Positions 6,846 through 12,598 are shown, numbered from the stretch's first letter. The stretch is DNA of 64,000 bases from Candidatus Moraniibacteriota bacterium (GCA_049304095.1 JBAQNU010000024.1:11893-75892); one strand, 5' to 3'. Program-made: numbers and translations. Notes: generated by a model from the sequence alone, not told the origin.

Positions 6846-9800
6846 ATGAAAGATACAATGAATCAAAACCTTGCCAATTTCATAAAATACTGCTTGGGGT
6901 ATATAAATATAACTCGCCAAAAAGGATTCTTTTCTCAGCAGAAAAGTTCCATAGAAATATCGGAAAATATTTTGAATTTGGAGGGGTTGTTAAATGGCGA
7001 GCTTGATGAAAAAACAGAAGAGCTTATTAACCTAGAAACTTTTTATAGTTATGACCCAAAAAAAGTTCCAGAAGAACTCAAAGAGGAATACCAGAAACAA
7101 AAAGAGTTAGCTAATAAAATTGAGGATATTTATAATAAACACAGGAATGACCAATATCGAAAACAGATTATTTTGCATTTCGGACATTTTGAAATAGAAA
7201 TTCCTCAGATAGAAGAAGAAAACGGCGATGTGACAGAGAGTGTGGAATTGAGCGAAGAAAAAGCTGGCAAGCAGGCCAAGTTATTCGAAGGAAAAGAATT
7301 TGAGAACGAAAAAGAGGACAATGAAGTAAATATAAAAAAAGAAAGTTACCCTTTATTTAGTTTGCCAATTCGTATTGAGAAAGATTGTGGCAAGTATTTT
7401 ATGTACACTGTTGACCCAGAAATTCAGGTCAATATTGGTTCACTGGAAGGTGTGTTAGGAGAAGAATTATATTTTCAACTTTTGGAGAAAATTAGTAAGT
7501 ATGAGATAGATGATAGATTCACAATACCAATAAATGATTTAGCAATTCTTCAAGAAGTTTGGCACGAAGTAAAAAATCAGTTGAAGCTAAAGGATGTGGT
7601 CTTTGAAGAAGAGTCGTTTAGTTTAGAAGAAATGAAATTAACCCTGGGGCTCAAGGCAAACTATTTTTTATCGGAAGATTTGCGAAAGCTATCAGAACTT
7701 TCAGGAGATTTGGAAAAATCATCTCTCATAAGCTGGGTAAATAATGATGGGCTAAACGAAGAGACTAAGACTATAAAGAAAACAGAACTGTATTTTCCTT
7801 TTGCTTATGATAAGCATCAAGTTAGAATTTTATCACTTCTTAAAAATAAGGCTTTTATAGTCGAGGGTCCTCCTGGTACAGGAAAATCCCAAACAATTTC
7901 CAATTTGCTGTGCCATTTAGCAGCCTCAGGAAAAAAAGTACTTTTTGTTAGCCAGAAAGCTCAAGCCTTAAAGGTAGTAAAAGATAAGCTCAAGACTTTG
8001 GGGGTGGATTATTTATTTGGTTATCTGCCTAATCCAGCATCGGCTCAACTTAATGAAATAGATGAGCTGGATGGTATTGCTCCTCAGCTCTCCGCAATGA
8101 ATCAGCATATCGAAAAAATACTTCACGGCTCACAAAGAAGTAACGCCAATAAAAGCTCCGAATTATCTGAGGCGGTAGAAAAAACTTACCAGCTAGTCAA
8201 TGACTTAAATTTGGCTGTAGAAACACAACGAAAAGCATATGCTCTTTATACAGAACTTGAAAAACTCAAGGAATTTGAGATGAGCATCACTGAATTTGAT
8301 GTTTTTTGTCAGTGTTTTTCACGAGAATATTGGAGGGGTATAAAAGACTTGAAGGGGAAAATGGAAGAGCTTAGTCATTTTTTAGAAAAATATGGAAATT
8401 CTAAAGAAAAGAGACAATTGGACAAGGTATTTTCTAAATTGGATTTTAATGGAACTAAGTACTTTGGCTTTATAGACACAATTTTGGGGGATGTGGAAAA
8501 AACTTGTTATGACAAACATTCGAAGTTTTTTAGAAATATAAATAACACAAAAAGAAATTTTAGATTAAAAACAGTTCGCAATAGTCTCCCAATGGAAATA
8601 ATAGATGTTGTGGACGAGCTTTTATTAGAAGACTTATCTAAAAATGAAAAGGTTAAATTTTTAAAAATGCTTTCTGGCTATTGTCAATTCTTTGAAGTGA
8701 AAAGTGAACTGGAAGAGCACCGACTTCAGCTGGAGAAGTCTTTATGCGAATGCGGAGTCTCTCACGATGAATTCCAGATTATTGACAAAAAAATATTAGA
8801 AACGCCTTCTTGTGAGTTGGAGAAAATAAAAGATAAGATTGTTAGGGTGCAGGCGATAAAAGAAGAGTTGAAAAATCTTAAAGCTGGAAATCAAAATGTA
8901 ATTACTTCCCAACTTCACGACATTCGAAATGATGTTGGTCTTCGAGTCGCTCATTATCTCAAGAACATTCTCAACAAAAATATCATAGAAAAATGCAGTA
9001 CTAGTATTACGGTAAGACAAATAGTAAGACGCTTAGCAAGTGCCTTCAAAAAATCAAAGACTGCTTTTAAGACTTTTGATAAAATCAGGAAAGATGCGGA
9101 TAACTTCAACACCATCTTGGACCTCATACCGATTTGGATAATGGAACTCGATGACGCTAGTCGCATTGTTCCATTGGAAGCGGGGATTTTTGATTATGTG
9201 ATTCTAGATGAAGCATCACAGTGCAATGTTGCCTATACGCTTCCAGTAATGTTTAGAGCTAAACACGCTATTTTTGTTGGAGATAGTGAGCAGATGAGAG
9301 ATAATACAATAATGTTTAAATCCAATAGGACATTTGACGAACTGGCGAAGAGACATCAAATCCCAGATGAATTAAGAATAAAGAGTACAGGAACAACAGT
9401 ACAATCTGTTTTGGATATAGCGTATCTTAGGGGTTTTCAAAATAAAGCGTTGACTTATCACTATCGCTCTCCTAAGGAGCTAATCGGTTTTTGTAATAAG
9501 TATTTTTATATTCCCAAGGGTAAAGAATTGATATCATTAAACAGTCAATATTTAACTTACAAGGACACAAATAGGATAATGATTGCCCATTATATTGAAA
9601 ATGATTGGAGCGAAGAATTTTCTGATGCGGTTAATGTGGCAGAAGCCAAAGCCATTTTGAGTTTATTTAGGGAATTAAGGAGCGATGATAAGTATAAAAA
9701 TAAATCTATTGGTATTCTTTCATTTTTCAACGCACAGGCTACTTTTATTCGTGAATTGCTGGAAAAAGAGGGATTTAAGGAGGAGAAGAATGACTATGTT

Positions 9801-10621: not shown

Positions 10622-12598
10622 ATGTTAATTGATTATGTTGAAGTAAAAAATTATAGGTCATTGTTGAGTGAAAAACTCTACTTAGAGAATCTCACGGCAC
10701 TTGTTGGTGCGAATGGTGCAGGAAAATCAACTTTTCTAAAAGCACTTGAGATTTTTTATGCTTCTGCTCAAACAATAAAACAGGATGATTATTATAATAA
10801 AGATTCATCGTCTCATATAAGCATATCAGTTGCATATAAAAACTTGTCAGATGAAGCTAAGGAGCTTTTTTCTCCATATTTGCAAGATGGTGGATTGGTT
10901 GTTGAGCTAGAGATTGGTTGGAATGAGGGTAGGCCAAGTTTCAAGTATCACGGCTCAAGTTTACAAAATCCAGATTTCGTTTCAATTAGGAATGTTTCTG
11001 GTGCAAATGAAAAGAAGGCATCGTATGCAGAACTTAGAAAGCAGGAAAAATATAACTCTCTTCCAGCAGTAAGAAGTGGAGGTGCTGTGGTAGATGAATT
11101 AGCAAAATGGGAAAATGAAAATATTGCTCAATGCGTTAGGTTAAGAGACGATGGTCAATTTTTTGGATTTAAAAGTGTTGCAAAGGGGTATCTTGGAAAG
11201 TTTTCACAATTTTTATTTATTCCAGCTGTGCGAGATGCTATTGGAGATGCGGAGGATGCAAAAAATTCAACATTTTCACGCTTGATGGATTTAGTTGTGA
11301 AAAGTGTTATTTCTAGAAAGCAAGAATATATTGATTTGAAAAGTGCAACTGAAGAAAAATATAAAGAAATAATGAATCCAGAAAAACTTACCGAGTTGAA
11401 TGTGTTACAAGAACAGATGAACGAAACAATTAAAACTTTTGTGCCCAATGCTAGTATAGGTTTAAATTGGCTTCCACTGGGCAGTATAAATATGCCTCCT
11501 CCACTGGCTGATATTAAGTTGATAGAAGATGGTTTTGAATCTTCGGTTGAAAAAACTGGACACGGATTGCAAAGAGCATTTATTTTAACCCTGTTGCAAC
11601 ATTTGGCTATGGAGCAAGTTAAAGCAAATGATAATGGTGAATCAACTTCTTCAACATTGCCAACACTTATTTTGGCAATAGAGGAGCCAGAAATTTATCA
11701 ACACCCCAATAGGCAAAGACATTTAGCAAAGATATTAAAGAAACTCGCTCACGGGAAAACGCCTGGTGTTGCTGAAAATACTCAAGTTTTGTATTGCACG
11801 CATTCACCTCATTTTGTAGGAATTGATAGAATTGACCAAATCAGGCTTTTTCGTAAAGTTGGAAATGAAGGGAAGCCAAAAATAACAAAAGTTATTAGTA
11901 CTAATTTGGATGATGTGGCTAACAGTATCTGGGAATCAGATGGAAGTAATGGACAAAAATTTGATAGTAGTAGTTTAATTCCAAGGATTCACGCAATAAT
12001 GACCCCTTGGATGAATGAAGGATTTTTTTCTGATGTTAACATATTGGTTGAGGGCGAGGACGATAGGGCTGCAATTCTGGGTATCGCTAAAGCGAACGGA
12101 TGTGAATTAGAGGGAGATGGCTTTTCTGTTATACCTTGTGGAGGAAAAAATAGTATCGATAGACCTTATATTATTTTTACAAAATTAGGTATCCCAACTT
12201 ATATAATATGGGATGGAGATTTTGGAAAAGGCGAAACATCTGGAGAGTGCAAATTTTGCGGTAAGGTTTTGGATAATAAAGCAAAGCCTGAAGAAAATAA
12301 AAAATTACTTCGATTGGTTGGTCGCAGTGAAGAGGAATGGCCTAGCTATATAGATGATAAGTCAGCTTGCTTCAAGGATAAGTTGGAGACTACCCTATGT
12401 GAAGAAATTGGTTCTGATATATTTGAAAAATGTCTCCAGGAATGTCAAAAAGAATATGGAATATCAACAAAAAAACACGCAATAAAAAATCCAAATGTAA
12501 TTACGGATATAATAAACAAGGCTAAGGAACAGGGTAAAACTAGCGAATCTCTTGAGGAAATTTTGAAAAAAATATTGATGCTAAAAAATCAGAAATAA
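10622..12598 (+). CDS. OLD-family ATP-dependent endonuclease (ABC/AAA_15-type ATPase plus Toprim; GajA/class-1 OLD-like)
   Basis: N-terminal IDYVEVKNYRSL...LVGANGAGKST. C-terminal Toprim-like NILVEGEDDRAAILGIA...WDGDFGKG. Confidence 0.7.
   Translation: MLIDYVEVKNYRSLLSEKLYLENLTALVGANGAGKSTFLKALEIFYASAQTIKQDDYYNKDSSSHISISVAYKNLSDEAKELFSPYLQDGGLVVELEIGWNEGRPSFKYHGSSLQNPDFVSIRNVSGANEKKASYAELRKQEKYNSLPAVRSGGAVVDELAKWENENIAQCVRLRDDGQFFGFKSVAKGYLGKFSQFLFIPAVRDAIGDAEDAKNSTFSRLMDLVVKSVISRKQEYIDLKSATEEKYKEIMNPEKLTELNVLQEQMNETIKTFVPNASIGLNWLPLGSINMPPPLADIKLIEDGFESSVEKTGHGLQRAFILTLLQHLAMEQVKANDNGESTSSTLPTLILAIEEPEIYQHPNRQRHLAKILKKLAHGKTPGVAENTQVLYCTHSPHFVGIDRIDQIRLFRKVGNEGKPKITKVISTNLDDVANSIWESDGSNGQKFDSSSLIPRIHAIMTPWMNEGFFSDVNILVEGEDDRAAILGIAKANGCELEGDGFSVIPCGGKNSIDRPYIIFTKLGIPTYIIWDGDFGKGETSGECKFCGKVLDNKAKPEENKKLLRLVGRSEEEWPSYIDDKSACFKDKLETTLCEEIGSDIFEKCLQECQKEYGISTKKHAIKNPNVITDIINKAKEQGKTSESLEEILKKILMLKNQK

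Follow-up and report, generated by a model that had tools for sequence, protein, structure and literature searches.

Do two adjacent genes in a Patescibacteria genome, one for a large helicase-nuclease and one for an OLD-family nuclease, form a single two-gene defense system, or do they merely share an address? The question is raised by a stretch of 64,000 nucleotides (nt) from a Candidatus Moraniibacteriota bacterium (GCA_049304095.1, JBAQNU010000024.1:11893-75892), which we call the window. Both genes lie on its + strand: HEL (6846-10439; 1197 amino acids, aa) encodes a Upf1-like superfamily 1B (SF1B) helicase with a C-terminal Vsr-like nuclease, and OLD (10622-12598; 658 aa) encodes an ATPase/Toprim protein. 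A preliminary description of this DNA had located both open reading frames (ORFs), correctly, and had proposed that they may make up a new two-gene defense arrangement. The genes themselves are predicted far beyond chance, given their Pfam E-values. The arrangement is not supported, because across ∼130 related loci compared the two families do not co-occur in other genomes. HEL and OLD are most probably two independent single-gene defense-type modules, brought side by side by their shared location in a strain-variable island of this Moraniibacteriota (Patescibacteria) lineage.

We scanned one genome per species (185,579 species) with two invariant motifs of the helicase family and obtained 46 loci, distributed over Patescibacteria, Omnitrophota, TM6/Babeliales, Chlamydiia, Nitrospirota, Ignavibacteriae, Firestonebacteria, and others. 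Flanking DNA (up to 10 kb) extended at least 2.5 kb downstream in 33 of the loci and at least 2.5 kb upstream in 27, and partners were sought in it with tblastn/BLAST, phmmer, and an OLD profile hidden Markov model (HMM). Outside the window's own population, a window-type OLD was found near the helicase at none of the 46 genome loci. An OLD-family gene of any type was near it at only one, L002 (Moranbacteria; helicase 63% identical), where the OLD is 25% identical to that of the window and an opposite-strand gene and a 168-aa ORF stand between it and the helicase. We also searched from the other side, using BLAST and a helicase profile HMM on 80 metagenome OLD loci (41–58% identity, plus the clonal L061). 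The HEL family was present in L061 only (99%, same population) and thus in 0 of the 79 loci outside that population. The nearest nonclonal OLD relatives, at 78, 75, and 73% identity, are all from Moraniibacteriota and sit in other defense islands, and a helicase-nuclease accompanies OLD in none of these three loci. The first has a restriction–modification-like cluster, a NERD protein, and a Macro-domain protein; the second has T5orf172, EcoRI methylase, GmrSD, and DUF2130; and the third has DpnI, MazE, SocA, and Fic. The preliminary description had itself named failure to co-occur across genomes as the result that would speak against a pair, and this is the result in both search directions.

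Variation within the species points the same way. Strain L048 carries a helicase that is 100% identical in protein and 98% identical in nucleotide sequence, and its alignment follows window positions 5633-10471 and then resumes directly at 12715-14483. Because the alignment jumps from 10471 to 12715, a 2.24-kb OLD-bearing cassette (10472-12714, + strand) is absent from L048, and xseA there starts 36 nt after HEL. The indel is clean and is flanked by a repeat (AAAATAAAA), seen at the two ends as an imperfect direct repeat (left GAGGTAAAAATAAAA, right GAGGGGCAAAATAAAA) with a 9-bp exact core. It may be an insertion or a deletion. No cassette ends were common to other Moraniibacteriota OLD loci, with which DNA homology is confined to the coding region. 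A second variable slot follows xseB. In the window it is occupied by genes for a HEPN protein, at 14479-15228, and for a tyrosine recombinase, at 15301-16212, together spanning 14479-16212 on the + strand; in L048 the slot (11202-13113) has instead a 105-aa ORF and OLD2, an OLD of another type (529 aa) that shares 29% identity with the window OLD (OLD1) and 60% with the L002 OLD; and in L049 the HEPN gene is kept and the integrase is deleted down to remnants of ∼50 bp at each end (14724-14779). Each strain seen has OLD1 in slot A or OLD2 in slot B and none has both, with only two haplotypes known. The sister contigs L049-L052 and L061 have the window arrangement and, because they are 97–99% identical to the window, belong to the same population; L142 is the source genome itself.

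These data bear on whether HEL and OLD could be a true two-component system of the Gabija kind, with the SF1B helicase-nuclease taking the place of the UvrD-like GajB in at least this lineage. The window does resemble Gabija (GajA, a class 2 OLD, plus GajB, a UvrD-like SF1A helicase) in having an OLD-family nuclease beside an SF1 helicase gene. HEL and OLD share a strand and are separated by 182 nt as measured (the earlier figure was 183), and a promoter/terminator scan, uninformative overall with 46 promoter-like sites against 36 expected, found no + strand terminator-like site between the genes and no obvious promoter-like site on the + strand in the gap. At least six contigs, drawn from different samples, show the arrangement; both L002 and L048 have OLD2 close to the helicase; and a single 2195-aa ORF at L112 unites an OLD (aa 1-538) with a helicase-nuclease. 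However, the contigs that repeat the arrangement are one population by their identity, L048 has an identical helicase without the window-type OLD, the partner is missing from 78 of the 80 OLD loci as the window-type OLD is from all 46 helicase loci, and the closest nonclonal homologs of HEL and of OLD are unpaired. Unlike GajB, moreover, the window helicase is encoded upstream, is SF1B, has a nuclease of its own, and is no conserved partner of OLD. We therefore regard a Gabija-like pair as highly improbable. Were it real, a new class of partner, an SF1B helicase-nuclease, would have to be added for OLD nucleases; the evidence speaks against this.

The L112 ORF (10001-16588; contig Ga0208189_1000262) deserves separate comment. 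Its OLD part, 58% identical to the window OLD, is in frame with a complete helicase-nuclease of DUF4011/AAA_11/AAA_12/MTES_1575 composition, for which the PDC-S37 and Hhe models give 1248 and 616 bits, respectively. The OLD part ends at "...LGIP," directly before the invariant WDGD motif, so the nuclease is truncated; a linker of ∼50 aa follows, and then the helicase begins from its normal N-terminus. No second OLD–helicase fusion appeared among 25 homologs of the fusion protein or the 150 best OLD representatives. As Rosetta-stone support for the pair, L112 was rejected, being a singleton that lacks the Toprim DGD motif. Such a pattern would be expected if a deletion had joined two neighboring genes or if the assembly were chimeric. 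We treat L112 as a further case of the two kinds of gene lying side by side, here in reversed order and with a helicase of another family, and not as evidence of an obligate pair.

Several observations nevertheless weigh against full independence or against a defense role. An OLD-family gene is nearby in three of the four contexts of the helicase's closest clade: OLD1 in the window and OLD2 in L048 and L002, with none within 2.3 kb in L047. L112 likewise joins a related OLD to a DUF4011 helicase-nuclease. These leave some room for a looser functional affinity of OLD nucleases with Hhe-type helicases. In its strongest form, OLD nucleases and Hhe/PDC-S37-type SF1B helicase-nucleases would be functionally linked as one facultative, Gabija-like two-component defense with GajB replaced, which would bring together the pair in the window, the proximity of OLD2 to the helicase in L002 and L048, and the fusion in L112. 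We give this link only a slim chance. In addition, the HEL family is unusually conserved for a defense gene (mean column identity of 60% over 1190 aa), and HEL abuts xseAB in the OLD-less strain, which makes a role in repair possible.

What kind of protein, then, is HEL? The earlier assignment to Upf1-like SF1B helicases with a Vsr-like nuclease proved right by Pfam, PADLOC, NCBIfam, and PDB profile matches. Pfam places AAA_11 at aa 328-478, AAA_12 at aa 865-1045 (8.5e-22), and MTES_1575 at aa 1089-1181 (2.7e-15), the latter with a weak DUF559 match; this Vsr-like nuclease is encoded at 10110-10388 (+ strand). A profile of 23 homologs matched only Upf1-like SF1B helicases in the PDB, namely IGHMBP2, Sen1, Upf1/Nam7, and Dna2. 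The motifs GPPGTGKSQT (aa 341-350), DEASQ (aa 788-792), IECDGPTHF, and GWNFYRL all read as first described, and one was misread, the true sequence being IQGDEKDIII and not FQGDEKDIII. All catalytic motifs are intact on alignment. Invariant among homologs are the Walker A GPPGTGKS (aa 341-348; 7866-7889, + strand), D788, E789, S791, and Q792 of motif II (9207-9221, + strand), GDSEQ (812-816), QGDE (993-996), R1033, N1035, and R1040, and, in the nuclease, D1119, E1134-C-D1136-G, and H1140. Family members are full-length at ∼1170–1230 aa and share 43–74% identity across many phyla.

The suggested kinship to Hhe-type single-gene defense proteins was borne out, with every match in the C-terminal half. 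PADLOC assigned PDC-S37 at 1.9e-74 and Hhe at 1.9e-35. NCBIfam scored HEL at 238.5 bits for ProA (NF058533; cut-off 1500) and at 163.9 bits for Hhe (NF042953; cut-off 2000), aa 755-1180 corresponding to profile positions 1255-1667 of 1797, and placed it above the curated cut-off of no named defense family. A full-length PDC-S37 match is absent (249 bits; best stretch aa 775-1182 vs. 931-1327 of the 1550-position model). The C-terminal half (aa ∼749-1187), nuclease included, aligns with DUF4011 helicases at an hhalign probability of 100 and 28% identity; the N-terminal profile reaches 2.4% (E 0.019). Pfam gave no match in HEL to DUF4011 (PF13195) at E ≤ 0.01, nor to DUF3320, and the N-terminal domain (310 aa, ∼aa 1-310; 6846-7775, + strand) matches no Pfam family and no solved structure. 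HEL is like Hhe, PDC-S37, and ProA in its AAA_11/AAA_12 SF1B core with a long insert between motifs I and II and in its C-terminal MTES_1575/DUF559 Vsr-like nuclease with conserved acidic residues. It is unlike them in size, at ∼1190 aa vs. ∼1550–1900 aa, and in having no detectable DUF4011 or DUF3320. From these comparisons HEL is best classed as a compact relative, not a member, of the Hhe/PDC-S37/ProA group, sharing the RecA2 and nuclease half and bearing an N-terminal domain of its own. Hhe was reportedly described as a single-gene defense by Gao et al. in 2020. It depends on its Vsr-like nuclease (bioRxiv 10.1101/2022.06.16.496414), and a defense role for the HEL family may be suggested by analogy. 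We found no usable literature on PDC-S37 or ProA.

The distribution and surroundings of the HEL family also bear on whether HEL could instead be a DNA-repair or recombination helicase-nuclease acting with exonuclease VII, in a HEL–xseA–xseB operon into which the OLD cassette was merely inserted. The gene after OLD, which the preliminary description did not mention, encodes an HRDC-OB-XseA protein (12728-14245) and is followed by XseB (14263-14472), both on the + strand (12728-14472 overall). XseA is supported by NCBIfam (318 bits; cut-off 180) and by Pfam HRDC, tRNA_anti_2, and Exonuc_VII_L, and the XseB-like ORF falls just under its NCBIfam cut-off (33.3 bits vs. 35). For XseA, the N-terminal HRDC domain (aa 3-69, 1e-20) is an unusual fusion. 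Their immediate succession to HEL on the same strand in L048, the strong conservation of the helicase, and the frequency of RecB/Cas4-like nucleases among helicase neighbors would all suit a repair operon. But XseA stands beside the helicase only in this species, with no XseA match in L001-L047, and the family is patchy, occurring in 46 of 185,579 species genomes even though the search motifs are invariant in it. It crosses phyla at 45–68% identity; it is split into two ORFs, possibly by frameshift, in L012, L035, and L036, duplicated in tandem in L045, and present in two copies in one metagenome-assembled genome (L028, L034); and it is often found beside serine recombinases (12 loci). Because it is patchy, cross-phylum, duplicated or split, and near serine recombinases, we take HEL to be accessory and horizontally moved, and a repair operon to be unlikely. 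As conserved partners of HEL, xseAB were rejected, the adjacency being limited to this species.

The remaining helicase neighbors are mixed and include DUF2779/TM0106-like nucleases, Cas4-like PD-(D/E)XK proteins, DUF2130, and SNase. The most recurrent functional neighbors are the DUF2779/TM0106-like proteins (∼490 aa; PD-(D/E)XK/Cas4-like plus RNase-H-like), whose genes are immediately downstream on the same strand in seven loci (L004, L012, L044, L014, L016, L017, and L040). As real partners of the helicase they are more plausible than OLD. In sister strains a DUF2779 gene lies two genes upstream of the helicase (intact at 3330-4781 in L048). The CxxC...CxxC membrane protein that the preliminary description had noted upstream of HEL (5829-6680, + strand; 283 aa) is indeed present, and it accompanies HEL only in this species (L048-L052, L061) and at no other helicase locus. 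Viral contigs gave one distant match only, and the HEL family is essentially absent from them.

The second gene was taken to encode a class-1-type OLD nuclease, and this also held. Pfam identifies an AAA_15 ATPase at aa 1-399 (7e-45), with Walker A GANGAGKS (29-36) and Walker B AIEEPE (352-357), and an OLD-like_TOPRIM domain at aa 468-533 (4.5e-17), with LVEGEDD and WDGD contributing E477, D480, D481, D531, and D533. These five residues are invariant in 25 homologs, as are G29, K35, S36, E354-E357, and H394. The best PADLOC model is "Old" (7.7e-59), ahead of the GajA models, and the sole PDB sequence match at E ≤ 0.001 is 6P74, the class 1 OLD of Thermus scotoductus (TsOLD; 3.4e-20), with no GajA structure among the matches at that threshold. 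No UvrD-like gene follows OLD, and no UvrD-like family is among the identified recurrent neighbors of the 80 homologous OLD loci. By NCBIfam, OLD is above the curated cut-off of no named defense family. The family is one of stand-alone proteins, because its best 150 cluster representatives are all 454–699 aa long. The window OLD is longer than P2 Old (586 aa) and TsOLD (528-aa chain) by ∼70–130 aa, with an extra ∼120 aa after the Toprim domain; like other class 1 OLDs, it has no UvrD-like helicase gene after it and belongs among stand-alone family members of ∼650 aa. By the published definition of class 1 (PMC7049728, PMC10568477), the missing downstream UvrD-like gene together with the TsOLD and PADLOC matches makes it class-1-type, and the class members P2 Old and Vibrio cholerae Vc OLD act as single genes (PMC10568477, PMC12392090).

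Relatives of OLD have recurrent contexts of their own. In 21 of the 80 metagenome loci, about one-quarter, a small KTSC protein (∼70 aa) is encoded immediately upstream of OLD, and in 16 of the 80, one-fifth, OLD is nested between HmaA and HmaB/HmaC (within L072-L097 and L115). In the Hma loci checked, the OLD stop codon overlaps the hmaB start. We know of no description of a KTSC–OLD pair. Both contexts are absent here: no KTSC remnant was found upstream of the window OLD, and no HmaA, HmaB, or HmaC homologs were found in the window. Nesting in Hma is the "guilt-by-embedding" context of HEC-04, an Hma-embedded ABC-ATPase/Toprim protein for which single-gene defense was demonstrated (Payne et al., bioRxiv 10.1101/2024.01.29.577857). 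The window OLD is like HEC-04 in combining an ABC ATPase and a Toprim domain in one polypeptide and in having Hma-embedded homologs; it is unlike it in lying outside Hma, and its 25 best PADLOC models do not include HEC-04. Separately, 7 of the 80 loci (L063, L065, L096, L100, L108, L126, and L139) have an SbcD-like gene no more than a few kb from the OLD homolog, an adjoining SbcC-like gene being confirmed in L063 and L065.

As independent modules, HEL and OLD would be separate effectors. In HEL, by analogy, the N-terminal and insert domains would sense foreign or aberrant nucleic acid, the Upf1-like SF1B motor would translocate 5′-3′, and the MTES_1575 (Vsr-like) nuclease would cut. In OLD, on the pattern of P2 Old, TsOLD, Vc OLD, and HEC-04, an ABC ATPase dimer would license the nicking or degradation of DNA by a two-metal Toprim nuclease, acting alone. 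Their adjacency would then stem from an OLD cassette that was inserted between HEL and xseA, in the intergenic spacer of a variable island in which the second slot swaps HEPN and integrase genes for a different OLD.

The wider setting is that of a defense island, as the preliminary description had suggested from the mobile modules on either side. The pair region lies between two copies of a TerL-like/integrase/LOOT-RNA module, and the window contains a TerL-like ORF (627-2165), integrases (2836-3687, 15301-16212, and 18558-19442), and the second TerL/integrase copy (27454-30539). G+C content is 33–38% at 4-16 kb vs. ∼40% for most of the remaining window. Upstream of the membrane protein gene, 5602-5811 (+ strand) is the 3′ remnant of a DUF2779 gene (PD-(D/E)XK plus RNase-H-like; phmmer 1.7e-25 to the L048 protein). 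Sister strains have the whole gene. Homology with L048 and L049 starts at window position 5633, and here the gene was apparently cut off by the upstream integrase/LOOT/Zn-ribbon element. A comparable slot is the Pseudomonas aeruginosa core defense hotspot cDHS1, on whose border lies a conserved DUF4011 helicase gene (PMC10250203). In both, defense cassettes turn over in a slot that has a large gene for an Hhe-type helicase at its edge. The window differs in phylum and helicase family, and its helicase is itself accessory and horizontally spread.

The module copies have a regular layout. LOOT RNA (RF03000) matches lie at 3818-3940 and 30653-30779 on the + strand (101.6 and 87.8 bits). Immediately upstream of each is a tyrosine recombinase of 283 aa, itself preceded by a TerL-like ORF of 512 aa (TerL-like/recombinase at 627-2165/2836-3687 and 27454-28992/29688-30539), and a Zn-ribbon membrane gene comes after each match. 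LOOT may belong to a small integrative element of Patescibacteria. The window also has short conserved intergenic direct repeats (57–131 nt, 79–88% identity; 17934-17990, 53271-53327, and 57443-59826), among them a three-copy family of 67 nt that starts with TTGAC and ends in a T-run.

Patescibacteria have, to our knowledge, rarely been examined for defense. In this lineage, the locus is a clear case from nature of cassettes being exchanged in a defense hotspot beside xseAB. The comparisons also show that a compact, ∼1190-aa relative of Hhe, PDC-S37, and ProA is widespread and horizontally mobile in Patescibacteria and several other phyla, and that the OLD clade is often embedded in Hma systems or accompanied by a KTSC partner. 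HEL and OLD are each a candidate single-gene defense.

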